DNA of 64,000 nt, taken from NCBI GenBank assembly GCA_043757325.1, contig JAYVPO010000019.1, positions 18,624 through 82,623 of the forward strand, written 5' to 3'. The notes below the pieces were generated by a model that ran no database searches, was not told where the DNA came from, and was given only the letters and a program-made list of their open reading frames with translations. The translations under genes and the position numbers were made by a program. This DNA comes from a bacterium (GTDB lineage: Bacteria > Bdellovibrionota_B > Oligoflexia > Oligoflexales > RGVZ01). Shown here one piece after another: positions 3,374 through 52,650 of the stretch (its first letter is position 1; every line of letters begins with the position of its first letter).

Positions 3374-3561
3374 GCTTAGGGCCCGTCACAAAATAACTTG
3401 TGGTTCTTGCCGACAAGTTGTGTTCAGATTTGAAAGTTTTCTTAGCAAAAAATACCGGAGTTTGTCCGCGACAAATGAGGATTTTTTTACCAAGAAAAAT
3501 TGTGAAGATGAATAGAAATTGTCGGCAAGAAGTATAAGTTATTTTGTGACGGGACCTTAGC
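3374..3561. repeat. MITE-like inverted repeat (43-nt arms, about 102-nt centre)
   Basis: 3374-3416 (gcttagggcccgtcacaaaataacttgtggttcttgccgacaa) is complementary to 3519-3561 (ttgtcggcaagaagtataagttattttgtgacgggaccttagc), apart from a 4-nt block and two further mismatches. Confidence 0.7.
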
Positions 3562-3596: not shown

Positions 3597-4670
3597 TTAA
3601 TATGCTTCACCGCAATTCAAAACGCGCGCAGGTTTTTGCGGGTAGTCAAAATCTTTATTGTTGAACGGTGCCAAACCAATACGTGTATGCGGCTCGCCTG
3701 TTCGTGGTTGAAACCAGAACCAACTAAAATCTTCGCTATTGGTCGACAGTGCTTTCATTCCAGTATTCTCGATTTTGGGGACTATTACCTGAAGCCAAGT
3801 TTTGCTTTCAGTGATTAAATTTAAAGACGAAAAGCTCGGTCCTAGATCGCGCTCAAGAAGGCACGTCCAGCGTTCGTTCCATGAGGATTCAAGGCCGCGA
3901 ACGATGAAACTTTTGCCGTGAATTTTCGCAACTAAATCGGGCTGTGAAGCGATAAGCCGCATTGTCAATCCGAGAACGGACCCACCACCGCTGTGCGCCC
4001 AAGCAACTTTTCCGCCACAAGTCATCGACTCAAAAACTGCTGCTACGGCTTCTTGCATAAATCGATTAGTTTTATCGACCCCGCGATGTGTCACATAGTC
4101 TTCGAGTTCGATTTTATCTCGTGCAGCAACCCGCCCCCCAAAATGTGAGCCATCTAGCGCATCCGCAGGCCAGGTCATCGCCAAAAAACTCTCACGCGAA
4201 AGAATATTATTACGCACACTGAGCATACGCGCTTCGTCTTCGTCACCCCAAACCGTGACATGCTGCCCAGATTTTTGATAGTAACGGTAAATTGAACGTG
4301 ATTCGCGTTCAGTAACTTTTACATTGGCCGGAAATTCACCTCGCGAGCGGTTGTAATAATTCAAAATATGCCAATTTTTACCGCTCGACTTGGCGGCACT
4401 GACATAGATTTCGCCGACGTCCTCATCTTCACCCCAATCGCTGAACGGGCTTTCGCCTTTGTCGAACGCCTGAATTCCTGGAAAATAAGGAGTAAATAAA
4501 ACTTTCGGGCAAGAACGAGCGAGCATTTTTTTCTTAAATGCAGGAGTTAAAATATACTCTGCCGAGAATGTTTCTCGGTCGGCAGGCCCAAGGTCTTCGG
4601 GACTGAGTTTTTGCTTCGGATGGCAGGCAGTAAAGACCAAGGCCGTTAGTATAATATTCAGTGTTTGCAT
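3597..4670 (-). CDS. Lipoprotein, putative alpha/beta-hydrolase fold
   Basis: Signal peptide with lipobox LVFTAC. Nucleophile-elbow-like WAHSGGGSVLG. No closer family assignment is possible by eye. Confidence 0.7.
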   Translation of the reverse strand: MQTLNIILTALVFTACHPKQKLSPEDLGPADRETFSAEYILTPAFKKKMLARSCPKVLFTPYFPGIQAFDKGESPFSDWGEDEDVGEIYVSAAKSSGKNWHILNYYNRSRGEFPANVKVTERESRSIYRYYQKSGQHVTVWGDEDEARMLSVRNNILSRESFLAMTWPADALDGSHFGGRVAARDKIELEDYVTHRGVDKTNRFMQEAVAAVFESMTCGGKVAWAHSGGGSVLGLTMRLIASQPDLVAKIHGKSFIVRGLESSWNERWTCLLERDLGPSFSSLNLITESKTWLQVIVPKIENTGMKALSTNSEDFSWFWFQPRTGEPHTRIGLAPFNNKDFDYPQKPARVLNCGEAY

Positions 4671-4749: not shown

Positions 4750-5079
4750 TCAGTCCTGGATAATCCAAGAAATCCTTATCTTGTTGTCTTCACTAAAAGG
4801 AACTAATTTAACAAACTGATGTGTCGATTTAATGACCTTTAAAAATGCATCAAGCTCTTCGTCGGACACGGGCCCGATCTTTGTTCCATAGTCTTGAATG
4901 CTCATTTTTTTAATCTTAGCAGCCGGCTGATCTGCAGTCATGTCAATGAGGAGCCGTTGCTTAGTGGTTAAACCTATTCTTGGTCGAGATGCACTCACTT
5001 TTTCACCATTGTTTTTGGCAATTTCCAGCTTTAACTCTCCAAGTTCTATCGGTTTTTCGTGAAGTTTCTTGAGCACCAA
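4750..5079 (-). CDS. Hypothetical protein
   Basis: 109-codon ORF with a TTG/GTG start and an AGGTG 9 nt upstream. No recognisable motif. Confidence 0.4.
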   Translation of the reverse strand: MVLKKLHEKPIELGELKLEIAKNNGEKVSASRPRIGLTTKQRLLIDMTADQPAAKIKKMSIQDYGTKIGPVSDEELDAFLKVIKSTHQFVKLVPFSEDNKIRISWIIQD

Positions 5080-5494
5080 CTGTCACTGCACCTGTATTTT
5101 ACCCTAAACTATTTTAATTGTTTCTGCCACGGACACCTATATTGTCCATACCGTTGCTCAATAGATATCCACTTGGTAAAATTAACACAGCTAAGGCTTG
5201 TGCTCAAATCGACTTTAACTTGTTGAAAATAATATCGCTTTCTCCCACAATATTGTTTCTTAGAAGTATCGCAAAGAGAAAGAAATTGAGATTGACCATA
5301 AGTGACCAGGTATTGTCTCGACTAAAGCAAATTCTAAAAACTTTTGGTATTCATTTTTCAAAAAAAATTCGCGCATTTATTGAGACCGTTTTGGGAAATA
5401 TTTCCGGTCAAAGTAAAAAATATCAAAAATAATTTCATTAAATGTACCTCTCGTTTTAGTTTAGCTTGATCTATTGTTTGCATCAACTTAGGTG

Positions 5495-5885
5495 AGCATT
5501 GCGGGGTACAGTTTTTGTGCGCGAGTAAAGTTTTAGAAGACTACTGCGTCTACGTCTTTTCAGGTCCTTTGCATTTGCCTTTTCCTAAACATAAGCTTTG
5601 CGCCTGATTGTGATGGTCGCCTGGAGGCGTTACCCTCAACGACTGACTTCATTCTTGTTTATATTGAGGAGAAAACACAAATTAAAGTTAGAAAATTACT
5701 GATTTCCATAGTCTCGAAATTCTCAAAATTTTGTATGCAAAGGTAAACGCCTCTCGGCGACCACCACGATCACGCGCAAAGCTTTAGTTAAGGAAAAGGC
5801 AAATGTCAAAGACTCGAACAAACGTTGGCTAGGCAATCCCAGAAAACTTAACTGGCGCAGGAAAACTGCATCCAATCGTTGCTTC
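5495..5885. repeat. Long imperfect foldback element, family 2 copy C
   Basis: Arms of about 140 nt (about 5497-5637 and 5745-5882) are complementary at roughly 70-75 percent of positions by eye. The arms are homologous to those of the element at 52168-52534. Confidence 0.75.
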
Positions 5886-10172: not shown

Positions 10173-10380
10173 TAAAAATAAGCAGTCAGCAATAATTTCC
10201 TGTTATTAAAAAATCTTAAAATAAAAAATCAATATTATTGACGAGTTAAATTTCTTTTGATAATTTTTGAAATACGTTTTGGTTAACTGTCAAGTGTCCC
10301 TTGGAATTTTCGCGGCTGCCGTTGTAGTCGCAAACGAAAATCTTTGGCCACTGGGCGAACGTTCGAGGGGGTTACGGGCG

Positions 10381-11274
10381 ATGAAACGTGTGGCCGAAAT
10401 TCGCTTTCCGCAGTCAGCGAATCTTTTTCAATTTTGCAAAAAAATATTAGATCACAAATTTGGTAGCATTCGCATCATCGATCAGGATGTGGGGCAGATC
10501 CTTGGCTTTGATCCAGCCGATTGTAGCCATTGGAAAAAAGGCAAAAAAAACGTCCGTTCAATTTATTCAATGAAGGCAATCGCCGAACACCTCGGAATCG
10601 ACGAACAGCTAGTTGTTGATGTGGCAGCGGGTGGTTTGAATGCTGAAGAAGGATTTTTTGAATTTAATGGTTACGGAAATTTTGAGGTCGACCATAAATT
10701 CTTCGAAAATCTTCGCAAAGAAACCATCAAAAAGAACATACCATGGTCAAAAAATTCTGAATCAGAGCTTAAATCTGTCTCCGAGCAAGCCTTCCATAAA
10801 ATTGATGAAATCATCTCAGACATTCATAAATCAATAGATCTTCAAGAAGCGCCCGTTTACTTGCCAGAAATATTCTCGCAAAATCCTGCAATAAAATACC
10901 AGGCTGTAGAAACTTTAAAAAATAAAGACTTAGAGTTTCAAACCACTGCGGGCGGGCTAGAAATCACTTGCCAAAAATCAAACGAAATCCGCCCACATAT
11001 TAGATTCCAGCTTGCACGGACTTTAGCAAAATATTACCTGCGCGACGTGCTGAAAGAGACCGAAACCCAGCATAAAGAACTTAGCAGCCGGCTCAACGAA
11101 ATTTATTGCAATCAGTTTGGTGCACGGCTTTTAACCCCAAAGTTTCTCATTCAGAAAGAAATTCAATCAGTTGATATTAGTAAAGACATTGTACTGCAGC
11201 TTAGTGAACGATTTTGGGTGTCCAAGCATTTCTTAAATCGCCGTCTTAAAGAAGCTCTGCAAAACTTAAGTTAA
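10381..11274 (+). CDS. Hypothetical protein with N-terminal HTH-like segment
   Basis: The preferred start is ATG 10381, with GAGGGGG 9 nt upstream, rather than the ORF-track TTG at 10267. QDVGQILGFDPADCSHWKKGKKNVRS resembles an XRE-type HTH. Confidence 0.6.
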   Translation: MKRVAEIRFPQSANLFQFCKKILDHKFGSIRIIDQDVGQILGFDPADCSHWKKGKKNVRSIYSMKAIAEHLGIDEQLVVDVAAGGLNAEEGFFEFNGYGNFEVDHKFFENLRKETIKKNIPWSKNSESELKSVSEQAFHKIDEIISDIHKSIDLQEAPVYLPEIFSQNPAIKYQAVETLKNKDLEFQTTAGGLEITCQKSNEIRPHIRFQLARTLAKYYLRDVLKETETQHKELSSRLNEIYCNQFGARLLTPKFLIQKEIQSVDISKDIVLQLSERFWVSKHFLNRRLKEALQNLS

Positions 11275-11341
11275 TCCTAGATTTCGGCCTATATTGGAAA
11301 TTTTGCTCACGCTAAAACGCCGTGATTTTTTTGATTTGGAT

Positions 11342-12268
11342 TTAAAAAAGTGGTTTTCCATTTGGCATGGAAATCCACACACTATCTGTCACTTCAACCG
11401 GTTTTAAAGTGCTTTTTAAAAGCGTCTTAGAAATTATTTCGGGGTCGTACTCGCGCTTGCGGCATTTTTCCACTCGGTAAATCTTTGAATGAAAAGTTAT
11501 CATTTTTCCTTCTAGACCTTTGCATGCTTCATTGATAGAAATTATATCAACAGAAGACTTATAAGGGCTTTCTACGTTTTCTTTCCGGTCAATGGTTGAA
11601 GAAAAAGGACTTCCGTCTTTAATCCGGGCAAGCTCTTCCGGGGTAAGGATAGTTAGTTCCATTTTTTTGCCTTTTTTACGGGCGTGATCAGAAAAAGTTT
11701 CGTAGTCGGGAAGCAGTCTTTTGCTGCAGTTTTCAATATAATAAATTTCAGTGCTTGAATATGTCACATATTGAGAAGCCACATCTTTGCATGTTCTTTT
11801 TCCGCTATTTTTGACTGTTGACTCGATGGGCTTTCCACTGCCTATCGCAGCGAGATTTCGGGGGTCAACTTCCGTGATTTTAACACCGGATCTTTGGAGC
11901 TGAAAAATAATTTCCGAATCTGCAATCAAGCGCCGCTGGCAGTTTTCAATTTTGAATATTTCGCCAAAAATGGAAATAAATGAGCCGTTGTACTTGCCAC
12001 AAATTTTTCGTCGTTCGGAGTCTGAAAAAGTTTTGACAACAGTTACTGTCCGATCTTTTGGAAAATGAATGACGTTTTCGTCTTCAGCGCCACCGGCGGG
12101 ATTTGATTTTTTTGGTTCGTAGGTGCTTCCCGAATCGACAGCAGGAGGTGCTGAGAAATCATTTGGTTCATCAAAATCATTTTGGGCTTGTCCGGAAAAC
12201 GAAAAGAAACCAAGCAGGGAAAGCAAAGCTAGGTTTATGTAAAAGCGTATTTTATTAGTTAAAAGCAA
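11342..12268 (-). CDS. Secreted protein with three tandem Cys-pair domains
   Basis: Signal peptide. Three repeats of about 70 aa, each C-x(15-20)-(I/V)ExC-(Q/S/R)(R/K)R ... G(K/S)P. AGGAGA upstream of a TTG start. Confidence 0.75.
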   Translation of the reverse strand: MLLTNKIRFYINLALLSLLGFFSFSGQAQNDFDEPNDFSAPPAVDSGSTYEPKKSNPAGGAEDENVIHFPKDRTVTVVKTFSDSERRKICGKYNGSFISIFGEIFKIENCQRRLIADSEIIFQLQRSGVKITEVDPRNLAAIGSGKPIESTVKNSGKRTCKDVASQYVTYSSTEIYYIENCSKRLLPDYETFSDHARKKGKKMELTILTPEELARIKDGSPFSSTIDRKENVESPYKSSVDIISINEACKGLEGKMITFHSKIYRVEKCRKREYDPEIISKTLLKSTLKPVEVTDSVWISMPNGKPLF

Positions 12269-12394
12269 GGTTCTTCTATTCTCCTAGGATCTTCTTCGGC
12301 ATTTTCACAAGGCCTCTTAGGAAAAAGGCCTTATATGAGTAAAAATGTCAATGATTATCGCGAGAAAGCTTTTTATTCGATCGAGATCAATCGC

Positions 12395-12883
12395 TTATTT
12401 AATGCTAGCAACTTGATCTTTTTTCTGAAAATGTGCCGCGATTTTCTTGCGCTTATGGTGTTTCTTTTTATGGGCATAATGATGACCATGCTTATGCTTT
12501 TTATGTTTAGCATATTTATGGCCACGGTGTTTTTTGTGTTTTTTAGCAAACTTTTTAGAATGCTTACCATGAGATTTTTTAGTTATTTTCTTTTCAGAAC
12601 CAAAGAAACTCTTTGCACTGTCGACAATTTTGTCTTTTGATTTAAAAGAGTTTAAAAACGCTGGAGAACTTGCTGGCGTTTTATCTGCTACTGGATAATC
12701 TCGAACGACCGGCGTACTTGCTCTACGAGAATACGTATTATTCGAATCACCGCTAGATTTGAATCCATAGATCCCCGCGGCCGTTACCGTTCCGAGACCT
12801 AAAACAGAAATTAAAATAAGCTTTAATTTACTTTTCGCTTCGGGCTTTTTATAGCTTTCATACATCGTTTTAATCGTTTTCAT
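12395..12883 (-). CDS. Membrane-anchored Lys/His-rich protein
   Basis: Start at MKTIK (AGGAG 7 nt upstream). One TM segment (LILISVLGLGTVTAAGIYGF). C-terminal about 60 aa is almost only K/H (HGKHSKKFAKKHKKHRGHKYAKHKKHKHGHHYAHKKKHHKRKK). Confidence 0.75.
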   Translation of the reverse strand: MKTIKTMYESYKKPEAKSKLKLILISVLGLGTVTAAGIYGFKSSGDSNNTYSRRASTPVVRDYPVADKTPASSPAFLNSFKSKDKIVDSAKSFFGSEKKITKKSHGKHSKKFAKKHKKHRGHKYAKHKKHKHGHHYAHKKKHHKRKKIAAHFQKKDQVASIK

Positions 12884-12951
12884 TTTCAACTCCTGATTGT
12901 GATTCATCTGCAACAACTTCCAGCTTTTGATTTGCTGGTTACTCTTATTAA

Positions 12952-12967
12952 AGCAATGCGCGTACCA
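12952..12967 (-). promoter_or_regulatory. Sigma-54 (-24/-12) promoter candidate for the Lys/His-rich protein gene
   Basis: The minus strand reads TGGTACG-CGCA-TTGCT against the consensus TGGCACG-N4-TTGCW, with correct GG-N10-GC spacing, about 70 nt upstream of the ATG. Confidence 0.55.
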
Positions 12968-13053
12968 AATGTTAGTTGTGAATTATTCGGGACTTACGTT
13001 TTTGAAATGTGAATGGGTTACGACAAGTGTCAAAATTTTTGACAGATAAGACA

Positions 13054-13084
13054 TAAAAAAAGCCGCAGAATCTGCGGCTTTTTC
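13054..13084 (-). terminator. Rho-independent terminator (bidirectional-looking)
   Basis: agccgca/tgcggct stem flanked by an A7 run on the + strand (T7 on the minus strand). Sits 20 nt downstream of the stop of the 13100-13849 gene. Confidence 0.8.
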
Positions 13085-13099
13085 GTTTAATATCATCAG

Positions 13100-13849
13100 T
13101 TAGCTGTCAATCGACCAGGCGCTGTTTCCCATATCTTTGTCACCCTTCCAATTTGACATGCCCATTTCGATTTGAACTTCAACATCTGTATCTGATCCGT
13201 TTCCTGGAGGATTTGCTGGTGGATTCGTACCACCGCCTCCTGGAGGATTTGCTGGAGGTTTTGTACCGCCACCGCCACCTGGAGGATTTGCTGGAGGTTT
13301 TGTGCCACCACCGCCTCCTGGAGGATTCGGTCCACTGCCACCTGAGCAAGGAACAACTTTGCTAAATTCGACTGTAATTCTTAGGCTTGAAATCATCTGA
13401 GAATCTTCAAAACAAAGGACGGGTTGAGAATTTGCTGAAATCTGCAAAGTGAATTTAGTCGTTTTATTTTGAGTTAACCCTTGAATCTTTCCAAGAAGGA
13501 TAGAACTAGCAGATTTTTCCAAGGTGTTACTTGTTGTCGTTGCACCGGAATCGTTTGAGGCAAAGGTATAACTTAAAGCCGCTTGCTGGATGTTTGCTGG
13601 TATAGCTGCGGATAAGACAGTAGGCGAAATCCGGCCTTCAGCAACGGCCGTAAGTTTAGAGTTCGGACCGCTTGGATCGCCTCCGGGTCCAGGCTTAATT
13701 CCATTACCAGGCCCTCCAGGAAGTCCAGATCCGGAATCGGGTTTTTTTGCTGGCGAATTGTTTTCGACTGTTGGACTTTTCTGTACGCACGACAAAAGTG
13801 ACGACGCAATAAAAGCAAGACCAAACCATTGATTGATTGAGCGATTCAT
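13100..13849 (-). CDS. Lipoprotein with C-terminal Gly/Pro repeats
   Basis: Signal peptide with lipobox LLSC. C-terminal PNPPGGGGGTKPPANPPGGGGGTKPPANPPGGGGTNPPANPP. Confidence 0.8.
   Translation of the reverse strand: MNRSINQWFGLAFIASSLLSCVQKSPTVENNSPAKKPDSGSGLPGGPGNGIKPGPGGDPSGPNSKLTAVAEGRISPTVLSAAIPANIQQAALSYTFASNDSGATTTSNTLEKSASSILLGKIQGLTQNKTTKFTLQISANSQPVLCFEDSQMISSLRITVEFSKVVPCSGGSGPNPPGGGGGTKPPANPPGGGGGTKPPANPPGGGGTNPPANPPGNGSDTDVEVQIEMGMSNWKGDKDMGNSAWSIDS
13205..13329. repeat. Tandem 36-39 bp repeat (about 3.3 units) inside the lipoprotein gene
   Basis: Units tggaggatttgctgg(a/t)gg(a/t)tt(c/t)gt(a/g)cc(gcc)accgcc(t/a)cc encode the GGGGTKPPANPP repeat. Confidence 0.85.
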
Positions 13850-13895
13850 AATTTAAGCCCTCATAAAATCTATAAACGACATTTTCTTTAGTATT

Positions 13896-13911
13896 TGCAA
13901 AAACGAGGCCC
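13896..13911 (-). promoter_or_regulatory. Weaker sigma-54-type promoter candidate for the Gly/Pro lipoprotein gene
   Basis: The minus strand reads gGGCctc-gttt-TTGCA. GG-N10-GC spacing is correct and the -12 TTGCA is perfect. The -24 box is only GGC. About 47 nt upstream of the ATG. Confidence 0.3.
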
Positions 13912-13978
13912 GCTATAACCCTCTACAACCTTTACCAAAACACCGTTAAAAAGCGGCTAAAGCTTAGACACTGTCGAC

Positions 13979-14848
13979 TTATGTGATTGTCGGTTGAGCC
14001 GCGAGACTATTATATGAGGCCAAATGTCCTGCTGTTCTTAACCCTAAATGCGCCATTACCTGATCGAGGGTTTTTCCTTGGCGAAATTGGTGACCGATAG
14101 CGTGTGATCGAAGTTCTTCGGTATTGAGTTTTTTAATTTCGCAATGATCACCAAGTTCATAGAGCGTAAACTTCACACCGTGTCTGGTTAAAGAAGTTAG
14201 ATGAACCGAAGAATGCTTGCCTTTAAATGCAATAAAAACATTTCCCGTGGATGAATACTTTCCGCATTCTTGAAACGTCGAGCGATAGTGTCGGAGTTGG
14301 GTAATGGTTTCGGAGCTCAAAATCAGCGTTCGAGGTCGCTGGCCTTTAATGCGAAGACTACCTTCGAAGCCAGACATTACAAGCTGTGACCAGGTTAGTT
14401 CCACAAGCTCACTCGCCTTTACCCCTTCCAACCCAAGTAAACATAATAAAGCCTGATCGCGCGCTGCTTTGAGACTAGAAAGTTGCGATTGGGCCGCAGC
14501 CATTAATTTTTCAAAAACTTCTTGATTGACCGAGATGCGTTTTTGTTCGGCACGATTTGGGATAACGACATGGGATGTGGGATTTTCGTTAACGTCACCT
14601 TGCACAATTAAAAATCGATAGAATTGCCTTAGACCAAGCAAAGCGCGCCGTGCAGAATTTATTTTTCCTGAGGAAAGTCTTGCCAACACAAATTCCGAAA
14701 CCGATTCCGCCGCCACAGCAAAAAAATTAAGTTTATGCGCGGTACAAAATTCTAGAAAAAGCTTTGTGTCACTGATGTAGGCTTCGCAAGTTGCGTCGGA
14801 TTTCCCGTGCGACTTAAGAAAAATTTTAAATTGAATTAAGTTTTCCAT
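13979..14848 (-). CDS. Tyrosine-recombinase (XerC/D, phage-integrase) family protein, catalytic motifs apparently degenerate
   Basis: SAM-like N-domain (FKIFLKSHGKSDATCEAYISDTKLFLEF) and a C-terminal ELRSHAIGHQF...AHLGLRTAGHLASY. Start taken at ATG 14848 (MENLIQF). Confidence 0.7.
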   Translation of the reverse strand: MENLIQFKIFLKSHGKSDATCEAYISDTKLFLEFCTAHKLNFFAVAAESVSEFVLARLSSGKINSARRALLGLRQFYRFLIVQGDVNENPTSHVVIPNRAEQKRISVNQEVFEKLMAAAQSQLSSLKAARDQALLCLLGLEGVKASELVELTWSQLVMSGFEGSLRIKGQRPRTLILSSETITQLRHYRSTFQECGKYSSTGNVFIAFKGKHSSVHLTSLTRHGVKFTLYELGDHCEIKKLNTEELRSHAIGHQFRQGKTLDQVMAHLGLRTAGHLASYNSLAAQPTIT

Positions 14849-14871
14849 TTTTTTAATGTTATCATAAAATA

Positions 14872-15477
14872 ATGCTTCACCGCCTAATTTTATTTTTTGT
14901 TGTTGTCTCAACCTCAAGTTTTGCTAGAGGTAGATCTTGCAAACTCATTTTTGAAGTCAACAAAACCAAAAGGGAAATCACAACCTCGGACACTTTGACT
15001 CTTTATCGCGGCGATCTTGTAAAACTAATAAAAACCTCACACTGTGGGTCTGATATGGTTTTTGAGTTTGTTGGTTTGAAACGCGATACTGAAAATCAAC
15101 CGCCGGTAAATGACCTTAATAACTTAATCGATACTGCCTATGCCTTTTCTGATGGAATTTATGCGCAAGGTAAATTTCAAATTTTTATGCGCAACTCTGC
15201 CGCCGAACTGAAAAGTCAAATTCAAGGTACGCTTTCAGAACCGGAGCTACACTATGCCGTGCTAACAACATCAGGAAGCGAAAGAATCGTAAGAAACGGC
15301 GATGTCATTGAGTTAATGGCGAAGCAAAAACTAAAAGTCTCACGGGTCGAAACAAATTTGACCGAAAAAAAGTTAATCAACGTGGAATTTAAAAACACGG
15401 GCCATTCAAACCGCGTTCAGTTGTTTGTAAAATATCAAAATTTTAAATTTGCAACTATTGAAACTCGGATCCGCTAA
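14872..15477 (+). CDS. Secreted hypothetical protein
   Basis: Signal peptide MLHRLILFFVVVSTSSFA. Its stop lies 2 nt before the start of the following kinase gene. Confidence 0.6.
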   Translation: MLHRLILFFVVVSTSSFARGRSCKLIFEVNKTKREITTSDTLTLYRGDLVKLIKTSHCGSDMVFEFVGLKRDTENQPPVNDLNNLIDTAYAFSDGIYAQGKFQIFMRNSAAELKSQIQGTLSEPELHYAVLTTSGSERIVRNGDVIELMAKQKLKVSRVETNLTEKKLINVEFKNTGHSNRVQLFVKYQNFKFATIETRIR

Positions 15478-19116: not shown

Positions 19117-20342
19117 CTTTTAAAACTATGGCTATTAAGCAAGATAACTCGGGCATTTATTTTGATGCTGCTCACCTTGATATGGGAAAAAAATGGGAGG
19201 CACGAGTTGTTGATGAAAATCGCATTTTACTGCAATCTTCAAACTTTCCTTTTATCACTGAAAATTATCTAGATGGATTTGCAAAATGCAGCGCCGAGGT
19301 ATTTCGCGATCTTTTGGTGGGAATAAATCAACGAAAATGGTCTGGCCTCATCACCACCGATTCTGGCTTTGGAGTCAAAAAAATTTTTTTTAGTGAAGGT
19401 GAAATAATTTTCGCTTCGTCAAATTTAATAGATGATCGTCTTGGTGAGATTATTTACAGAGAAAGCATGATTACTTTAGACCAGCTTACCGAAGCTGCCG
19501 TGAAAGTTGATCGAAATAATAAATTTGGCCAGGTTTTGTTAACCGGAAAAGTTTTTGACAACAATAAACTCTGGACTGCTTTGAAACTGCAAGTTAGGTC
19601 TATTTTTTACAGTTTATTTTTACCCGACGAAATATTTTTTCAACTTGAGAGCGGAAAAAATCTAACCGCAAATGAAATTGTTTTTGAAGACGGCACCGCG
19701 CAACTCATAGACGAAGGGTTTGCATTGGGATGCCAATTTCATTCTTTTCGAAATCGCTTGACCGAAGCTACAACAATCGAAATTTCAAATTTAGACTGGC
19801 AGACAAGTATTCAAGAAGGGACGTTTATGCACGATCTTTTTGAACTTATCGGGGTGGACTCACATGTGGATTTGGTCATTAAAAATTCAAAGCTTTCGCA
19901 ATTGAATACCCTGAACTTAATTTTTCGATTTTCGCAGCTCGGATTTTGTAAATTACGTAACCGCAAAGATTCGCATCGTAGTTTAAACACTCCTGTTTTA
20001 AGTCGAATTCGAGCTCGTCTAGACACCTATTCGATGCTTCTACATTTTGTTAAAAGCAGCTTTCAAGCAACTGAAATCGCCTTTCCATTTAACGAACTTC
20101 GCCAATTTGCATTGAGTTTGAATTCTAATTATGTAACGTCTTTTTTTATCGATTCCGACGGAATGGTTGATGCCGACTGTGTTGAATCCATTGCCGAGCA
20201 GTGCTTAGCACATCCTGCAAGTTCAAATTTTTTTGAAACTCGAATCCATAGCCTCACGCGATTTATTTTTCAAATAGCTTTAGACAATTTACCTCAGTCG
20301 CAGACTCTTAAACTGAAAGATTTTCTGCGGGATATACATTGA
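19113..20342 (+). CDS. Hypothetical protein, possible DUF4388 (PATAN-like) N-terminal domain
   Basis: The ATG overlaps the upstream stop (ATGA). GLITTDSGFGVKKIFFSEGEIIFASSNLIDDRLGEIIY resembles the DUF4388 signature. Confidence 0.6.
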   Translation: MTFKTMAIKQDNSGIYFDAAHLDMGKKWEARVVDENRILLQSSNFPFITENYLDGFAKCSAEVFRDLLVGINQRKWSGLITTDSGFGVKKIFFSEGEIIFASSNLIDDRLGEIIYRESMITLDQLTEAAVKVDRNNKFGQVLLTGKVFDNNKLWTALKLQVRSIFYSLFLPDEIFFQLESGKNLTANEIVFEDGTAQLIDEGFALGCQFHSFRNRLTEATTIEISNLDWQTSIQEGTFMHDLFELIGVDSHVDLVIKNSKLSQLNTLNLIFRFSQLGFCKLRNRKDSHRSLNTPVLSRIRARLDTYSMLLHFVKSSFQATEIAFPFNELRQFALSLNSNYVTSFFIDSDGMVDADCVESIAEQCLAHPASSNFFETRIHSLTRFIFQIALDNLPQSQTLKLKDFLRDIH

Positions 20343-21034
20343 CAGAAATCAACAATATATTTTTGATTGAGGGGCTGCCGATCGTGGAAGAGTATGTGCG
20401 AAATCGCCCTCTTGCGATTGAGAAGATCTATGCTCGTTCCAACGATTTTGATTTAGTCCAGAAAACTTTTCGCACGTTTAAGGTTACAAAAAACGATCAA
20501 CTATCGCGGCAAAGTTGCTTTGCTCACATAAAAATAGAGCTCAAAGATTTTGATTATCTAACTAAAAATCTCGCGGAAAAAGAAGTCATAGTAGCTTTAG
20601 ACCATGTGCAAGACCCAAGAAATGTCGGTGCCATTACGCGCACGTGCGCTTTTTTCGGTGTGCGATTTCTTTTGGCGCCCAAAGATCGGCAAGCGCTTTT
20701 AACGCAAAGCTCGGTAGCTACTGCGCAAGGTGGTTTCTCAGCTGTGGACTTGGTGCAGGTCACAAATCTTAAAACAGCCCTCGAACAGCTTAAAAAACAA
20801 GATTTTTGGATATTTGGTTCGGAAATGAACGGCAAATCTTTGCATACATACGATTTAAATTTTAAACGCTCGGTGATTATATTGGGTAACGAAGAGACGG
20901 GCCTGAAAAAAGGCGTTATTGAGTCCTGTGACGAGATCTTGTCCATTCCGACATTACGAAAAAAAATCGATTCTTTAAATGTATCGGTGGCCGCGGGCAT
21001 TTTTATATCTCACTTCGCTCGAAATCTCGCTTAG
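20339..21034 (+). CDS. rlmB: SpoU/TrmH-family RNA 2'-O-methyltransferase (RlmB-like)
   Basis: LDHVQDPRNVGAITRTCAFFGV, ILGNEETGL and IPTLRKKIDSLNVSVAAGI motifs. Confidence 0.85.
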   Translation: MTEINNIFLIEGLPIVEEYVRNRPLAIEKIYARSNDFDLVQKTFRTFKVTKNDQLSRQSCFAHIKIELKDFDYLTKNLAEKEVIVALDHVQDPRNVGAITRTCAFFGVRFLLAPKDRQALLTQSSVATAQGGFSAVDLVQVTNLKTALEQLKKQDFWIFGSEMNGKSLHTYDLNFKRSVIILGNEETGLKKGVIESCDEILSIPTLRKKIDSLNVSVAAGIFISHFARNLA

Positions 21035-21242
21035 TCTATTGGAATTTTTAAGGAGTTTTATTCTTTTTTTGGGCTTTTTATTTAGAAAATATAAAACGTT
21101 TCAGGGATGATTCGACCGGGAGGAATCTGCAAAGCAAAAGGTCACGGGGCCGGTCTGCATATATCCCTGAAACGTTTTATATTTTCTAAATAAAAAGCCC
21201 AAAAAAAGAATAAAACTCCTTAAAAATTCCAATAGACTAAGC
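21029..21242. repeat. Giant hairpin element, family 1 copy A
   Basis: 21031-21107 is a perfect reverse complement of 21164-21240 (77 bp, plus 2 more flanking bp). Inner 56 nt is tgattcgaccg-N32-cggtctgcatata. The left arm starts in the rlmB stop codon. Confidence 0.9.
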
Positions 21243-21324
21243 AAGTTTACGTCTCCGTTCGAAGTTTCAAAAGGAACGAGCGGGAAGGGGAGGGGGAGAA
21301 AATTTTTTGGCCGGAAACAATAGT

Positions 21325-21511
21325 TTATTCAATTTCTTTAAATTTAATCATCTTTTTTTAATTTTTAAAAATAAAAACATTTCAGGGGATATATGCAGAC
21401 CGACCCGCAAATTGTATTCAAAAAAGACTGTTCGATCGGTCGAATCATCCCCTGAAATGTTTTTATTTTTAAAAATTAAAAAAAATGATTAAATTTAAGG
21501 AAATTGAATAA
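21325..21511. repeat. Giant hairpin element, family 1 copy B (core inverted relative to A)
   Basis: Arms 21325-21389 and 21448-21511 are complementary except for one mismatch and a 1-nt indel. Inner part is tatatgcagaccg-N34-cggtcgaatca. Confidence 0.9.
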
Positions 21512-21570
21512 CCTATTTTTTCCGTCCTAAACTTTTTTGAACACCGAATTAAGTTTAAAGTTTCAATCGC

Positions 21571-21599
21571 TTGACACCGGAATGCACCAGTAGTATCAA
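21571..21599 (+). promoter_or_regulatory. Sigma-70-type promoter candidate for the tRNA-tuf operon
   Basis: TTGACA (21571-76), 17-nt spacer, TATCAA (21594-99). AT-rich upstream region. About 65 nt before the first tRNA. Confidence 0.45.
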
Positions 21600-21666
21600 T
21601 TATTACTCGTCTATTTTGAAACAAGATTAATCTTTTGTGCATCATGGATTGTTTTCGTATCGTGTT

Positions 21667-21742
21667 GCTGGTGTAGCTCAATTGGTAGAGCAGCTGATTT
21701 GTAATCAGCAGGTTGCGGGTTCAAGTCCCATCGCCAGCTCCA
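21667..21742 (+). tRNA. tRNA-Thr (anticodon TGT)
   Basis: 76 nt cloverleaf folded by hand. Acceptor gctggtg/cgccagc, anticodon loop tttgtaa, encoded CCA. One C-A mismatch in the T stem. Confidence 0.9.
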
Positions 21743-21779
21743 GTGATATGTTTAGATCGTTGAAGTGAGGGAGTAGTGG

Positions 21780-21865
21780 GGATGGATACCCAAGTGGCCA
21801 AAGGGGACGGGCTGTAAACCCGTTGACAATAGTCTTCGAAGGTTCGAATCCTTCTCCATCCACCA
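21780..21865 (+). tRNA. tRNA-Tyr (anticodon GTA)
   Basis: 86 nt. Acceptor ggatgga/tccatcc, anticodon loop ctgtaaa, long variable arm, T-loop ttcgaat, CCA. Confidence 0.9.
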
Positions 21866-21873
21866 AAATTGTT

Positions 21874-21949
21874 GCGGGTGTAGCTCAGCTGGTAGAGCAT
21901 TAGCCTTCCAAGCTAAATGTCGCGAGTTCGATTCTCGTCGCCCGCTCCA
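21874..21949 (+). tRNA. tRNA-Gly (anticodon TCC)
   Basis: 76 nt. Acceptor gcgggtg/cgcccgc, anticodon loop cttccaa, CCA. Confidence 0.92.
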
Positions 21950-21957
21950 GCTTTTCT

Positions 21958-22033
21958 GCCCAGGTAGCTCAGCTGGTAGAGCACGTCCTTGGTAAGGACG
22001 AGGTCACGGGTTCGAGTCCCGTTCTGGGCTCCA
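21958..22033 (+). tRNA. tRNA-Thr (anticodon GGT)
   Basis: 76 nt. Acceptor gcccagg/tctgggc, anticodon loop ttggtaa, CCA. Confidence 0.92.
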
Positions 22034-22203: not shown

Positions 22204-23397
22204 ATGTCGAAAGAGAAGTTTGAGCGTAAAAAACCGCACGTTAATATTGGCACGATTGGCCACGTTGACCACGGTAAAACAACATTAACAGCAGCTATTA
22301 CTCGAGTGATGTCGGTGAAATTTGGTGGTCAGGCTTTAAGCTACGATCAGATTGACAAATCACCTGAGGAAAAAGCGCGCGGTATTACCATTTCAACTTC
22401 GCACGTTGAGTACGAATCTGAAAAACGGCATTACGCTCACGTGGATTGTCCAGGTCATGCTGACTACGTTAAAAACATGATCACGGGTGCGGCCCAGATG
22501 GACGGCGCTATTTTGGTTGTGAGTGCGTCTGACGGTCCGATGCCACAAACTCGTGAACACATTCTTTTAGCTCGCCAGGTTGGTGTGCCAAAAATTGTTG
22601 TGTTCCTTAATAAATGCGACATGGTTGATGACGCAGAATTACTTGACCTTGTAGAAATGGAAGTTCGTGAACTTCTTACACTCTATAAGTTTCCTGGCGA
22701 CGACACACCGATTATTCGTGGTTCCGCTTTAAAGGCTTTAGAATCAGGAACTCCAGATTCTGAATGGGGCAAAAAAATTGTAGAATTGATTGCGGCTTGC
22801 GATGAATATATTCCCATGCCACACCGTCCAATCGAAAGGCCGTTTTTGATGCCAATCGAAGACGTGTTTTCTATCTCCGGTCGCGGTACGGTTGTGACTG
22901 GCCGTATCGAAAGAGGAATTGTTAAAAACGGTGAAGAAATCGAAATTATCGGCATCAATCCAACAACAAAAACTGTATGTACGGGTGTTGAAATGTTCCG
23001 AAAACTTCTTGATGAGGGCCGTGCAGGCGATAACGTCGGCGTACTTTTACGCGGAACAAAACGCGAAGAAGTTGTACGTGGTCAAGTTCTAGCGAAGCCA
23101 GGTTCGATTACTCCTCACAAAAAATTCAAGGCACAGGTGTATATTCTGACCAAGGAAGAAGGCGGTCGTCACACTCCGTTTTTCAAAGGATACAGACCTC
23201 AGTTTTACTTTAGAACAACTGATGTTACCGGTGATATAAAGTTGCCAGATAATGTCGAAATGGTGATGCCCGGTGACAACATTGCGATGGACGTAGAATT
23301 AATATCTCCAATTGCGATGGATACGGAACTACGTTTTGCGATCCGTGAAGGCGGCAGAACAGTTGGTGCCGGTGTGGTTGCTGAGATTACAGATTAA
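22204..23397 (+). CDS. tuf: Elongation factor Tu
   Basis: 397 aa. [18 protein letters not shown] and NKCD G-motifs. AGGAGG upstream. Confidence 0.98.
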
Positions 23398-46068: not shown

Positions 46069-46779
46069 ATGAAGATATTATTTTTACTGCTGCTTACGGT
46101 TGCCTATGCTAACACATCGAGTGCGAGTGAATATCATCAGTATTTTCTCTTGCGCCGTGGAAAGCAAATTTTAAAACAAGATTCTATCCAATCCAAAGCG
46201 CACTTAACCGGATTGCAGTCCGATTTAGTGTTGCCCTATTTAGGACGTTTACAAATTTCATTCGACATGTCTCCAAATGTCACAAACGATACGAGCCTTG
46301 GAATAGAAAGCCTGCAGTGGAATCGTGGCACAGTTGGAAAGCCTTTCACAAAAGATTTTAAAAGCAGTTCTATTGACTTTACTCTTAGGGCTAGGTTGAC
46401 TAATTACCGCAGCAATTTGCCTACTATTGTGGATGGCGTAGAAACTGAAATCACCAACTTGGATATTGTCAATTGTGGCATTGCGGTAGCCGAACTGGGT
46501 TACGAGAAAAGAATTGCAACCGACTGGCTAAGAATTTATTACAACTACGGGTTATCTGTTCTTCGTAAGTCCCCCACGAAAGTCTGGGAGCATCAGGCAG
46601 GTGCCCATTATTTTCTTCCACTTTTCTCTACAGCTTCGCATTTTTCTGTTTTGATTAACGCATTTGCAGAGTTCGACAGTTTTAAATTTAGAAAACCTTC
46701 CGAGTCAGATGAAACCATCGATAGTGAACTCCGCGGCTCGACAGTTTTTGTCGGAGTCGGTTTAGGTTTTTCATTTTAA
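46069..46779 (+). CDS. Small outer-membrane beta-barrel-like protein
   Basis: Start at MKILFLLLLTVAYANTSSA (signal peptide). Alternating-hydrophobic strands. C-terminal GVGLGFSF ends in Phe. Confidence 0.65.
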   Translation: MKILFLLLLTVAYANTSSASEYHQYFLLRRGKQILKQDSIQSKAHLTGLQSDLVLPYLGRLQISFDMSPNVTNDTSLGIESLQWNRGTVGKPFTKDFKSSSIDFTLRARLTNYRSNLPTIVDGVETEITNLDIVNCGIAVAELGYEKRIATDWLRIYYNYGLSVLRKSPTKVWEHQAGAHYFLPLFSTASHFSVLINAFAEFDSFKFRKPSESDETIDSELRGSTVFVGVGLGFSF

Positions 46780-48131
46780 AATATTTTAAGACATTCAAGA
46801 TCTTTTAAAAAATCCGCAAAAGCTTTTTCTTGATTTTCTCGTGCTCGAAGGATGGCAGATGGATGGGTCGTTACTAATATTTTTGCATTATTTTTCAACT
46901 GAATAAGACTCCCGCGGACGTCTTTAATTTTTACAACTTTGCCTAAAATAGCTTGGGCAGCAGTTGCCCCTAAACAAACAATTATTTCAGGTTTTATAAG
47001 TTCCAACTCGTGATCAAGCCAGGATTTGCAAACAGCAATTTCTCTGGATTCAGGATTTTGATGGATACGCTTTCGACCTTCACCGGGTGTCCACTTAAAA
47101 TGTTTGACCGCATTCGTAATGTAAATCTGTTGACGATTTATCCCCAATATTTCCAATGCTCGATCAAGAAGCTGTCCTGCCGGGCCAACAAAAGGCAGTC
47201 CTGCTAAATCTTCTTGATCACCGGGCTGTTCTCCGACAAAAACAATTTTCGCATCTTTGGGCCCTTCTCCAAAAACGGTTTGCGTTGCATTTTTATGAAG
47301 GGGACAAAAAGTGCAACTTTTCGCAAGAGTTTTTAAATCCTCTAAAGTTGAGTTTACGGTCGTATGCTCTTGGATAAATTTTTCTGGAGAAGGCGGCTGC
47401 CAGGAAAGCATTTCCTCAACACGCTGTGGAGCTTTTTGTAACATAGATTCGATAATTTTGGTTTCGGGCAAAGTTTTCCAATGACGTACCGGCATTTCGT
47501 TTTTCATGGCTTTAATTTTAATGCGCGCAGGATTAAAAATATGCGCATAGTAAGTTAACCAATAGGTTTCAAAATCATCTTTTAAGCAAGGATCGATTTC
47601 GACTCCAGCCGAATAAATTAATTTTTTGCCGTCCCAATGCATCGACTCGTCAGGTGTCAAAATCGACCATTTCATAATTGCAAACCGCTCAACAAAAAAT
47701 GGCGCCGCAAGACGGACCACAAAATGATCGGGATTGTGCCAAGCGATATAAGTGTTTTCGTCAACTTGTTTAAATCGCACAAACGCTTTCATTTTATGGG
47801 TATCACGATGAACCGCTTTGGCACGCCGCTGAAGTTTTATAATGTCGTCATCTGTTAAATTAAGCATCAGAGTTTTGTCTTCGAATTGTAACCGCCACAA
47901 AAGCCGATACAACAAATCCCACCTGTCTTCTGATCTGAATAATCCGGCCTTTTCAGCTAATGAGACAAACTCACGCGGCACAAAAATTTGACTTTTTTGC
48001 GGATAGGAAATTTCTGTGCTGAGATCTCTAAGCTGCCAATTAACTTCTTCGGGCATTATTTTTAAATTAACCAGCGCTCGTGCAACCTTTCGCCAATTTG
48101 CAAAAGTTCCATCGATCGCGACGGTTTTCAC
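46776..48131 (-). CDS. DUF4130 domain fused to a family-4 uracil-DNA glycosylase of UdgX type
   Basis: Motif A GEQPGDQEDLAGLPFVGPAGQLLD, motif B HPSAILR, and the UdgX-type insertion GRKRIHQNP (RKRIH at 47061-47075). N-terminal FVRFKQV...WHNPDHFVV...FFVERF (DUF4130/TIGR03915-like). Confidence 0.85.
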   Translation of the reverse strand: MKTVAIDGTFANWRKVARALVNLKIMPEEVNWQLRDLSTEISYPQKSQIFVPREFVSLAEKAGLFRSEDRWDLLYRLLWRLQFEDKTLMLNLTDDDIIKLQRRAKAVHRDTHKMKAFVRFKQVDENTYIAWHNPDHFVVRLAAPFFVERFAIMKWSILTPDESMHWDGKKLIYSAGVEIDPCLKDDFETYWLTYYAHIFNPARIKIKAMKNEMPVRHWKTLPETKIIESMLQKAPQRVEEMLSWQPPSPEKFIQEHTTVNSTLEDLKTLAKSCTFCPLHKNATQTVFGEGPKDAKIVFVGEQPGDQEDLAGLPFVGPAGQLLDRALEILGINRQQIYITNAVKHFKWTPGEGRKRIHQNPESREIAVCKSWLDHELELIKPEIIVCLGATAAQAILGKVVKIKDVRGSLIQLKNNAKILVTTHPSAILRARENQEKAFADFLKDLECLKIF

Positions 48132-49390
48132 ACAAACTCTCGAATAATAGGCTCGCCAGTAACGGGATCATCAAACAAACTACGTTGAAAATACTTTGGC
48201 AGATGAATTTCATTTTCGAAAATTTTTAATTGCGTTCTGTTTTCTGAAATGGGCTCGTTAACTGTCACAAAGAACTTCACTTTTTCCAAAGAAACTCGCA
48301 TCTTTTTTAAATCCGTCCAGGTCAATAAATGATGCTTACGGACTTGCAGTATTTTTTTAACTGATCCAACACCTAAACCGGGAACTCGCAGAAGTGCTTT
48401 TTCTTGAGCTCGATTTACGTCGACTGGAAAAAAGTGTTTATTACGTAAAGCCCAGCTTAATTTTGGGTCATTTTTTAAGTCTAAATTTGGTTCGGCTTCA
48501 GTGGTTAATTCTTCAACTGCAAATCCGTAGAACCTCAATAACCAGTCTGCTTGGTATAGCCGATGCTCCCGCACTAAAGGCGGCGAAACCAACGGCAAAC
48601 GAGGGTCAGCGTCGGGAATTGGACTAAAAGCAGAGTAATAAACGCGCCGCAGATTATGCTTTTCGTATAAGTGATCTGCGGTTTTTAGAATCGCAGCGTC
48701 CGTGCTTGGAGTGGCTCCAACGATCATTTGAGTGCTCTGGCCACCAGGCGCAAAAATTGCTTTTTTGTCTCCGTCTTTTTTGCGTTCGAAAGAATTTGTA
48801 ATTTCGGATTTGATTGTTGTCATAACGTTTTCAATCGACACGTGGTCTTTCGCTGGAGCGAGTTGATTGAGATCTGCTTGAGTTGGCAACTCGATATTTG
48901 CGCTCAACCGATCAGCCCATTTTCCGGCTTCAATAAATAACTCCGGTGTAGCACCAGCAACCGCTTTTAGGTGAATATACCCACCAAATCGGTGTTTTGT
49001 GCGCAGATTTTTGGCAACTTTTATAAGCTCTTCCATTGTTGCATCAGGCGAACGTTGAACTCCTGAGCTCAAAAATAATCCTTCAATGTAATTGCGTTTA
49101 TAGAATTCAAGAGTAAGAGTCACAACCTCATCAGGAGAGAATTTTGCCCGAGGAATTTGACTAGAAACACGGTTGATACAATAAGTGCAGTCGAATATAC
49201 AGGCGTTGGTTAAAAGGATTTTGAGTAACGAGACACAACGCCCATCTGGAGTATAACTATGACAGATGCCGATCTTCTCGGTGGATCCGAGGCCGTTTTT
49301 AAAGCGTTTTTGCTTAACTCCACTGCTGGCACAGGAAGCATCATATTTGGCTGCGTCTGCAAGAATAGCGAGTTTTTTTTCGAGTTCCAT
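48128..49390 (-). CDS. Putative DNA modification/repair radical SAM protein (TIGR03916-like)
   Basis: CIFDCTYC CxxxCxxC cluster motif. C-terminal helix-hairpin-helix-like LLRVPGLGVGSVKKIL. 4-nt overlap with the UdgX-fusion gene. Confidence 0.85.
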   Translation of the reverse strand: MELEKKLAILADAAKYDASCASSGVKQKRFKNGLGSTEKIGICHSYTPDGRCVSLLKILLTNACIFDCTYCINRVSSQIPRAKFSPDEVVTLTLEFYKRNYIEGLFLSSGVQRSPDATMEELIKVAKNLRTKHRFGGYIHLKAVAGATPELFIEAGKWADRLSANIELPTQADLNQLAPAKDHVSIENVMTTIKSEITNSFERKKDGDKKAIFAPGGQSTQMIVGATPSTDAAILKTADHLYEKHNLRRVYYSAFSPIPDADPRLPLVSPPLVREHRLYQADWLLRFYGFAVEELTTEAEPNLDLKNDPKLSWALRNKHFFPVDVNRAQEKALLRVPGLGVGSVKKILQVRKHHLLTWTDLKKMRVSLEKVKFFVTVNEPISENRTQLKIFENEIHLPKYFQRSLFDDPVTGEPIIREFV

Positions 49391-52048: not shown

Positions 52049-52167
52049 ACATCACCTCTTAGTAATACTCTCGGATGACGGTGGTAGAAACTTAGTAGGA
52101 ATTTAAAGATTTGGAGTTTAAGCTATTTTTATCATACATTTTAGCTGGTTAACATCTTCATAACCTC

Positions 52168-52534
52168 CGGTTAACATTGGATGCAGTTTTCTGCGCAGGT
52201 TAATGTTTTCTGAACTTGTTACATCTACGTCTGTCCTTGTCTTTGACATCGGCTTTTTCCTTGCCTTTGGGATGATCGTGATTTTCGCCTAGAGGCGTTT
52301 GCCGTACAACTTTTCGTGCGCTGTTATGAGAATATCGAGAACATCGTTGGATATTTAAATAGCAAGTTTTTCTGGCTTAGCTTTGGGAATCCGCTCATGG
52401 CAAAGCCTCTCGGCGAGGATCACCTTCACCGCAAAGGCAACGAAAAAGTCGATGTCGAAGGAAAGGACAAACGTTAAGGTAACAAGTCCAGAAAACATCA
52501 AACCGCCGCGGAAAATTGCATCCAATGTTAGGCA
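52168..52534. repeat. Long imperfect foldback element, family 2 copy D
   Basis: Arms taacattggatgcag...gaggcgtttgcc (52172-52304) and ggcaaagcctc...tgcatccaatgtta (52399-52530) are complementary at roughly four-fifths of positions by eye. The arms are homologous to 5495-5885. Confidence 0.8.
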
Positions 52535-52650
52535 GAGTTTATTAAGAAGTTACCTCGAGGCTGATTTGAAGCGGCTTCAATAAGGAATATTTATGTCAGA
52601 AGGATTGTGAAAATGGAGTAACTATATTTAGAAATCAACCCTAAATTATT

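Follow-up and report, generated by a model that had tools for sequence, protein, structure and literature searches.

Two giant interrupted palindromes with a shared asymmetric core between rlmB and the tRNA-tuf operon: a candidate DNA-level repeat

A stretch of 64,000 nucleotides of contig JAYVPO010000019.1, from bacterial assembly GCA_043757325.1 (the whole of it, 64 kb, is referred to below as the window), carries two giant hairpin-forming sequences, copy A and copy B, which lie side by side in the gap between rlmB, encoding a 23S rRNA methyltransferase, and an operon of tRNA genes and tuf. Each element measures about 230-240 bp and is formed by AT-rich arms of 80-95 nt around an asymmetric centre. 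The two are read here, with moderate confidence, as members of a lineage-specific interrupted-palindrome repeat, similar in kind to miniature inverted-repeat transposable elements (MITEs) and to repetitive extragenic palindromic (REP) sequences, which would act at the DNA level and would owe both its complementary arms and its flipped core to copying from one arm to the other. The coordinates of all features are collected in Table 1.

In copy A, 80 consecutive perfect Watson-Crick pairs join positions 21029-21108 to 21163-21242, and six of the next nine positions outward still pair, giving 89-nt arms (21020-21108 and 21163-21251) which are complementary at 97%. The initial annotation, made from the sequence alone, had recognized these perfect arms, counting 77 bp plus 2 flanking bp, and had placed the beginning of the left arm within the rlmB stop codon; the arm contains the stop, together with the last sense codon (GCT TAG, 21029-21034). 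The centre enclosed by the arms is 54 nt long, asymmetric and non-palindromic. In copy B all 38 inner pairs, 21353-21390 with 21447-21484, are perfect and surround a centre of 56 nt. The imperfect palindrome, previously delimited at 21325-21511, is longer and reaches approximately from 21299 to 21537, with five mismatches and a single 1-nt indel or bulge, all located in the outer part; the mismatches follow no strand-consistent G-U (wobble) pattern. The abundance of inverted repetition is far from random, as 93 16-mers have their reverse complement within 300 nt, compared to 0-3 in shuffled sequences, and the z-scores of the single-stranded DNA fold are -21 for copy A and -15 for copy B.

The centres of both copies are built on the same pattern, TATATGCAGACCG-N32/34-CGGTCGAATCA, found with N32 on the minus strand in copy A (21108-21163) and with N34 on the plus strand in copy B (21390-21447). 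In copy A, read on the minus strand, box 1 (TATATGCAGACCG) occupies 21163-21151, the loop 21150-21119 (32 nt) and box 2 (CGGTCGAATCA) 21118-21108, the outermost base of each box being still paired. The identity of the boxes between the copies is exact, as originally reported (24 of 24 positions), and the motif is matched twice in the window and never in 100 shuffles. The 32-nt and 34-nt loops are unrelated, the score of their alignment falling inside the distribution obtained from shuffles, which bears out the lack of mutual similarity noted before. Within the core, a mini-stem of 5 bp, GACCG/CGGTC, gains a covarying sixth pair, G-C in copy A and A-T in copy B, and an asymmetric internal loop opposes ATATGCA to GAATC. 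Box identity and the covarying pair together suggest that the bubble and the mini-stem are under constraint, most simply as a core for protein recognition or hairpin nucleation, with the loop left free. The earlier description of a conserved scaffold with a hypervariable apex is retained in part: the scaffold and the unrelated apices are found in the two copies, but hypervariability of the loop is not established, since, for a pair of copies, it is enough that one loop was replaced once.

When their cores are set in the same sense, copies A and B align over their whole length. Gapped identity decreases from the core outward, being 93% in the 34 nt nearest the core, 82% beyond them and 68% further still, confirming that the copies are alignable near the core, diverge further out and are each self-complementary. 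The similarity of the inner arms is clear (z = 6.6 against shuffles), that of the outer arms is marginal (p = 0.03) and that of the terminal 32 nt is not significant (p = 0.16). The differences between the copies are distributed in a peculiar way. Among the 14 substitutions in the arms, 13 form a Watson-Crick pair in each copy, and several indels (5 nt and 2 nt long, among others) occur in matching form on the two arms of one copy. Of 67 pairs in the RNAalifold consensus, 20 are changed on both sides and only two, of G-U type, on one side. Mirrored indels and the near-absence of G-U intermediates point to DNA copying between arms rather than to compensatory mutation under selection at the RNA level; of the two possibilities initially offered, 'compensatory change, or arm-to-arm conversion', conversion is therefore preferred. 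More generally, 'compensatory change' within a DNA palindrome should not be taken as a sign of a functional RNA.

The physical reality of the palindromes is supported by the Logan k-mer assembly of SRR23617274, made separately, in which rlmB and the left arm of copy A are identical base for base. The Logan contig, shared by two samples, ends precisely at 21108, beyond which the sequence depends on the orientation of the core; this is what a true palindrome predicts, as the two possible continuations diverge at that point. The palindromes are no assembly artefact. A chimeric fold-back read, or a mis-joined inverted duplication, belongs to a known class of artefacts and might be feared in an 88.6-kb draft contig from an uncultured organism; such an origin is nevertheless barely credible here, given that the separate assembly ends at the arm/core junction in a contig common to two samples, and that the copies share the core yet differ in their arms, those of copy B being mismatched, which artefacts do not do. 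The inversion of the core between the copies, minus strand in A and plus strand in B, agrees with the initial annotation. The orientation of the core of copy A, as assembled, is only as reliable as the few reads spanning the 80-nt perfect arms, and for this reason opposite orientation is the weakest of the observations. Since hairpins of this kind break k-mer and short-read assemblies, in copy A exactly at the junction between arm and core, they are under-represented in metagenome-assembled genomes.

In the favoured reading, A and B would be two diverged copies of one repeat, residing in a dispensable stretch that separates rlmB from the tRNA-tuf promoter. Their arms may be kept complementary by replication template switching, or by intramolecular conversion, at a hairpin formed on single-stranded DNA. 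Copying of this type would pass substitutions and indels from one arm to the other, could lengthen the palindrome outward, in copy A into the rlmB stop codon, and could flip the centre, whose asymmetry would render the palindrome tolerable. The unit conserved between copies would comprise the inner ~35 nt of each arm, the two boxes and the 5-6-bp mini-stem GACCG(R)/(Y)CGGTC, most likely as the recognition or nucleation core of a non-autonomous selfish repeat, for example as a putative binding site for a trans-acting protein encoded elsewhere, and the apical loop would be unconstrained and probably replaced in one copy. Three elements of this scheme, namely template switching as the homogenising mechanism, an origin by mobility or duplication and the binding of a protein to the boxes, are what we infer from the sequence features described.

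The mechanism has precedents. Template switching at inverted repeats leads to arm homogenisation, arm extension and spacer inversion (PMC8604942), and template switching operates in quasipalindrome mutagenesis in E. coli (PMC7202029). It would explain the perfect arms of copy A, the better preservation of the inner than of the outer arm in copy B, the extension of copy A into rlmB and the opposite cores, without invoking any function; opposite core orientation is indeed an expected by-product of template switching or of recombination between arms. Interrupted palindromes engineered in E. coli resemble the elements described here in having arms of ~80-110 bp and an asymmetric centre (PMC4245961, PMC8604942, PMC7202029). 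Together with quasipalindrome mutagenesis they explain tolerance, the formation of hairpins on the lagging-strand template, arm homogenisation and extension, and spacer inversion; unlike A and B, they are laboratory constructs or short natural repeats, and they are silent on a core conserved between two natural copies. A perfect palindrome of 460 bp is lethal in E. coli, but recombination-proficient cells tolerate palindromes of 246 bp and 480 bp whose centres measure 24 bp and 20 bp, respectively (PMC4245961). As interrupted palindromes with centres of 20-24 bp are tolerated, the persistence of A and B, with centres of 54-56 nt, needs no special selection, and the initial suggestion that persistence of such unstable sequences indicates selection or very recent origin does not apply.

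Several observations weigh against this reading. Neutral DNA mechanics explain neither the 24/24 identity of boxes surrounding loops of random-level similarity and near-equal length, nor the covarying sixth pair of the mini-stem. The gradient of conservation is the reverse of that of a classical MITE, the core being most conserved and homology of the termini barely detectable. The known copies number two and lie next to each other; searching the 64 kb of the window and about 8 kb of adjoining sequence revealed none elsewhere, and the window has no transposase, RAYT or HUH gene. Inspection for target-site duplications gave only the palindromic dinucleotides TA, GC and CG in copy A and a T-run in copy B, which are indistinguishable from the palindrome itself and hence uninformative.

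Further copies were sought in 185,579 species-representative genomes (the source genome is apparently not among them), JGI metagenomes, IMG/VR, phages and plasmids; for the same organism, the sequence covered was the window and the ~8 kb adjoining it in Logan loci. The short form of the box pattern by which copies may be recognized is GCAGACCG-N20-50-CGGTCGAA. The pattern TATGCAGACCG-N20-50-CGGTCGAATCA was matched twice in genome contigs and once in metagenome contigs; these three sequences, GC-rich, mostly coding and devoid of stems, occur at about the chance rate and were rejected as copies. The strict pattern had no match in viral contigs, and the 14 viral matches to a relaxed pattern were attributed to chance, complementarity of their flanks being at most 0.57. 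No further copy was detected in the window by a covariance model of the inner 126 nt, run with filters off, nor do the boxes recur in the adjoining ~8 kb. BLAST comparison of the whole locus with phages and plasmids returned only AT-rich or chance matches. In the collections scanned, A and B thus form a two-member family which matches no catalogued one, and, as far as these collections show, the motif occurs only at this locus, an outcome that the initial annotation had named as telling against its own proposal of a guide-type or mobile hairpin class.

The source organism itself is poorly represented in databases. In a collection of 5.8 billion proteins, the identity of its elongation factor EF-G to other proteins does not exceed 63%, with Oligoflexus or Oligoflexales as the named matches, and the best relative of its RlmB is 68% identical, the next one 42%. 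Judged by these proteins, it would represent a deep, very poorly sampled Oligoflexia-like lineage. The hairpins follow a block encoding a histidine kinase, a sigma-54 response regulator, a PatA_N/DUF4388 protein and RlmB; on the other side, tuf is followed downstream by tRNA-Trp, secE, nusG, ribosomal-protein genes and rpoBC.

Table 1. Features of the hairpin locus and of its neighbourhood, in window coordinates.
Feature	Position	Strand	Basis and remarks
rlmB (SpoU/TrmH-family 23S rRNA methyltransferase)	20339..21034	+	Open reading frame, translation, Pfam SpoU_methylase; NCBIfam RlmB just below cutoff
Copy A left arm	21020..21108	none	Perfect from 21029; 6/9 pairs further out
Copy A asymmetric centre	21109..21162	-	Repeat analysis and direct reading
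Copy A right arm	21163..21251	none	Repeat analysis
A-B spacer	21252..21298	none	Includes G-rich polypurine run
Copy B left arm	21299..21389	none	37 core-proximal positions pair perfectly (38 with 21390, first base of box 1); outer part imperfect
Copy B core	21390..21447	+	Box 1 21390-21402, loop 21403-21436 (34 nt), box 2 21437-21447
Copy B right arm	21448..21537	none	Repeat analysis
Promoter-like TTGACA-17-TATCAA of tRNA-tuf operon	21571..21599	+	Sequence and alignment with relative L005; function inferred
tRNA-Thr(TGT), Tyr, Gly, Thr(GGT)	21667..22033	+	Rfam, ARAGORN
tuf	22204..23397	+	Open reading frame

The nearest relative, represented by an ENA contig (L005), has in common with the window the PatA-rlmB pair to the left of the hairpins and, to their right, the promoter-tRNA-tuf block, including the conserved TTGACA-17-TATCAA element. 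Homology is lost where rlmB ends and is regained just beyond copy B, at about 21547-21560. In place of window positions 21026-21546, the gap between rlmB and the tRNA genes holds in the relative an insert of 2.6 kb (L005 2325-4927), which encodes a 208-aa protein, an AAA_14/DUF4143 ATPase and a DUF6290-ParE toxin-antitoxin pair. Neither a hairpin nor the boxes are found in this gap of the relative. Copy A, the spacer and copy B fill exactly the non-conserved gap, and hence sit in a dispensable, variable part of the intergenic region. The gap between rlmB and the tRNA-tuf operon is a variable hot spot, and the same AAA_14/DUF4143 domains recur in a protein (L007 56-1207) encoded ~6 kb past the right end of the window.

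This setting bears on the possibility that the hairpins are folded-DNA recognition sites. Folded as a hairpin on single-stranded DNA or as a cruciform, they would offer the asymmetric bubble and mini-stem to an enzyme that recognizes structure, for instance a transposase, an HUH nuclease or, as at attC and CTX attP, a tyrosine recombinase. Such an enzyme would read from the asymmetry which strand it is bound to, and the elements would be recombination or integration sites at a hot spot close to tRNA genes. Complementary stems free in sequence, combined with a strictly conserved asymmetric bubble, are the logic of attC-type sites, and the design of A and B matches it. Such a role would be in keeping with the variable gap, filled in the relative by an insert of 2.6 kb, and with the gene for a divergent Xer-like tyrosine recombinase 6 kb upstream (13979-14917). 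The recombinase, which scores far below the XerC and XerD cutoffs, is the only one in the window; the statement of the initial annotation that no transposase, RAYT, reverse transcriptase, cas or integrase gene is adjacent holds. It is set apart from the hairpins, however, by the kinase-regulator-PatA-rlmB block, whose PatA_N-rlmB part is syntenic in the relative. No attC R/L core site (GTTRRRY) is visible, no cassette-like open reading frames (ORFs) lie between or beside the hairpins, and the borders of the insert in the relative hold no hairpin remnant, the only similarity being a 16-nt AT-rich match with E = 0.34. Recognition of this kind is possible, but on this evidence unlikely. A specific link to the Xer-like recombinase was considered and discarded, in view of the lack of positional or sequence evidence. 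The recombinase gene lies in a segment, 10267-15477, which also encodes an IrrE/M78-like protein and four ORFs with no family match, and which may be an integrated element. Within it, positions 13056-13125 match Rfam STnc40, a small RNA of Salmonella, with a score equal to the gathering threshold; the match is probably spurious.

A function in cis at the RNA level is also to be considered. Hairpins read through at the 3' end of rlmB could serve as RNase III sites, as blocks to 3'-exonucleases or as insulators, keeping the strong tRNA-tuf promoter apart from a weakly expressed rlmB. Since the rlmB stop codon is where copy A begins, any transcript of rlmB that does not end earlier must run into it; the other giant palindromes of the window (see below) likewise lie just downstream of gene ends, and the RNA folds are very stable (inner 100 nt, z about -8 to -9). 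Both strands, on the other hand, fold equally well; Watson-Crick pairing nearly free of G-U and indels mirrored between arms are unlike the product of RNA-level selection; and the relative does without the hairpins. No U-tract and no terminator-like site occur in 20800-21800. Such a function is accordingly considered improbable. The spacer between the copies (21252-21298) has no significant structure on either strand (z = -0.04 and +0.78). At gathering thresholds only tRNAs pass the Rfam scan, and a permissive scan added only generic long-hairpin models of plant miRNAs, far below threshold (89 vs 230 bits).

Two minor hypotheses on the core were dropped. Box 2 resembles a T-arm, but the resemblance is not significant after multiple testing, no tRNA model matches the hairpins at E <= 10 and ARAGORN reports only the real tRNAs, which leaves no ground for a tRNA-derived origin. 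The ATG in box 1 opens ORFs of 20 codons in copy B (21393-21455, plus strand) and 19 codons in copy A (21161-21102, minus strand), both ending at the same TGA in the stem, and the 2 additional nt in the loop and 1 in the stem preserve the frame; a coding role was rejected, as the two ORFs traverse box 2 in different frames and encode unrelated peptides.

The guide-type layout proposed by the initial annotation supposes a structured RNA or DNA whose scaffold presents a programmable loop of 32-34 nt to a trans-acting effector, the loop specifying a nucleic-acid target. It is suggested by the identical boxes placed around unrelated segments of near-equal, spacer-like length, by the mini-stem closing the loop, which keeps its pairing through a double change at the sixth pair, and by complementarity at 12 of 13 positions between the loop of copy B (21414-21426) and its right edge (21532-21544). 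The last match, however, lies within an A/T run and has no counterpart in copy A, and as a functional pairing it was judged to be due to chance. The number of copies is two, for which one replacement event suffices. The loops match nothing above chance in the window, where no target is longer than 12 nt, in 50,697 phage records or in 72,556 plasmids; the comparison with phages and plasmids, called for at the outset, returned AT-rich or chance matches only. No promoter was found for the hairpins, and the 52 ORFs of the window include no transposase, RAYT/HUH, reverse transcriptase, Cas, TnpB or IS110-type protein. With no loop match, promoter, Rfam family or partner protein in the window, and with the element absent from every other genome searched, a guide-type role is regarded as quite improbable. 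A step further, the hairpins could be an undescribed class of programmable scaffolds, in which a trans-acting protein, encoded elsewhere in this unsampled lineage, would recognize a long sequence-free stem and a conserved asymmetric bubble, and the 32-34-nt loop would be exchanged as a guide or as a cassette conferring specificity in recombination, defence or regulation; this we hold to be a very slim prospect.

Comparison with known systems shows that the hairpins cannot be filed as MITE, REPIN, attC, CRISPR, retron or terminator, because the defining features of each class were looked for and were not found together in A and B. Hairpin MITEs, such as Correia/CREE of Neisseria, ERIC/IRU, RUP and the Rickettsia palindromic elements, are similarly intergenic and protein-less, measure 100-250 bp, have inverted repeats at their ends and fold as a whole into one hairpin; they often touch or overlap a stop codon and share the transcript of the gene upstream, and they are missing from orthologous sites of relatives. 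They differ in occurring as tens to hundreds of dispersed copies with conserved termini and defined target-site duplications, several of them having a known parent insertion sequence (IS), whereas A and B are two adjacent copies, most conserved at the centre and least at the termini, with arms far longer and nearly perfect. Terminal inverted repeats are present, as the 80-95-nt arms, but the termini are barely alignable between copies. Multiple dispersed copies are lacking in the window and adjoining ~8 kb, the 185,579 genomes, JGI metagenomes and IMG/VR, and no parent IS or transposase is encoded by the window. A classical terminal repeat with TA duplication looked suggestive from the pair TAGTCTATTGG and TAGTTTATTCAA; it was discarded, being not significant against shuffles, and both palindromes extend past the TA.

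REP and REPIN sequences, with their RAYT proteins and BIME clusters, are comparable in that palindromic units occur as oppositely oriented neighbours in the 3' regions of genes and form single-stranded hairpins, presumably recognized by a trans-acting HUH protein. REPs, however, are GC-rich imperfect palindromes of 20-40 nt with a 5' GTAG, present in hundreds of copies along with a RAYT gene; A and B have AT-rich arms and no GTAG signature, and no Y1/HUH transposase is encoded in the window. In integron attC sites the structure is kept and the stem sequence is free, asymmetric unpaired bases set the strand to be recombined and a variable terminal structure is present, as in A and B; they are unlike them in having the conserved boxes R''/R' and L''/L' at the base of the hairpin and not near its apex, in their size (57-141 nt) and in the adjoining cassettes and IntI. 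The attC core sites RYYYAAC...GTTRRRY were not found in the hairpins, whose ends read GCTTAGTC.../AATAGTTT..., and there are no cassette ORFs. As for CRISPR and other guide systems, the boxes are no direct repeats, the window has no cas, TnpB or IS110 genes, and no loop match was found; a retron would call for a reverse transcriptase domain, which is absent from the window, and intrinsic terminators, defined by a short GC-rich stem and a U-tract, have no site in 20800-21800. A REPIN- or MITE-like element remains the nearest analogy to which the hairpins might be compared.

If the reading as a DNA-level repeat is correct, natural near-perfect interrupted palindromes of ~230 bp would persist in a bacterial chromosome with arms evolving in concert, and would be useful for the study of the birth, growth (here into a stop codon) and tolerance of hairpin repeats. 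The conserved asymmetric core with its replaced loop is the only part which could lead to new biology.

The window contains two further giant imperfect intergenic palindromes, at 3374-3561 (79-nt arms, 80% complementary, 30-nt centre) and 5504-5873 (133-nt arms, 74%, 104-nt centre), with DNA-fold z-scores of -10.8 and -10.3. They share no sequence with A and B or with each other. Their presence in the same 64 kb makes the source lineage seem generally permissive for giant palindromes, which it would tolerate or generate. The two bracket three ORFs (3597-4670, 4750-5079 and 5118-5432) with no match in Pfam, NCBIfam or PHROG, the largest having also no match in PDB. A second Logan contig ends at about 3433, inside the left arm of the palindrome at 3374-3561; this may be a coincidence, as other Logan contigs in this region are also short. 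An additional inverted repeat, 52150-52552, with 52-nt arms (81%) placed 299 nt apart, lies in a 600-bp gap upstream of the gene for a Big_5 protein (49559-52048).

Two other regions of the window deserve mention. The segment 40000-46000, which has low GC content (0.35-0.37) and a strong AT skew, encodes two tandem DUF2079 membrane proteins and two ORFs with no Pfam match, and may have been acquired horizontally. At 46776-49390, a fusion of DUF4130 and uracil-DNA-glycosylase adjoins a radical-SAM/HhH protein, and the two look like a DNA repair or modification pair.

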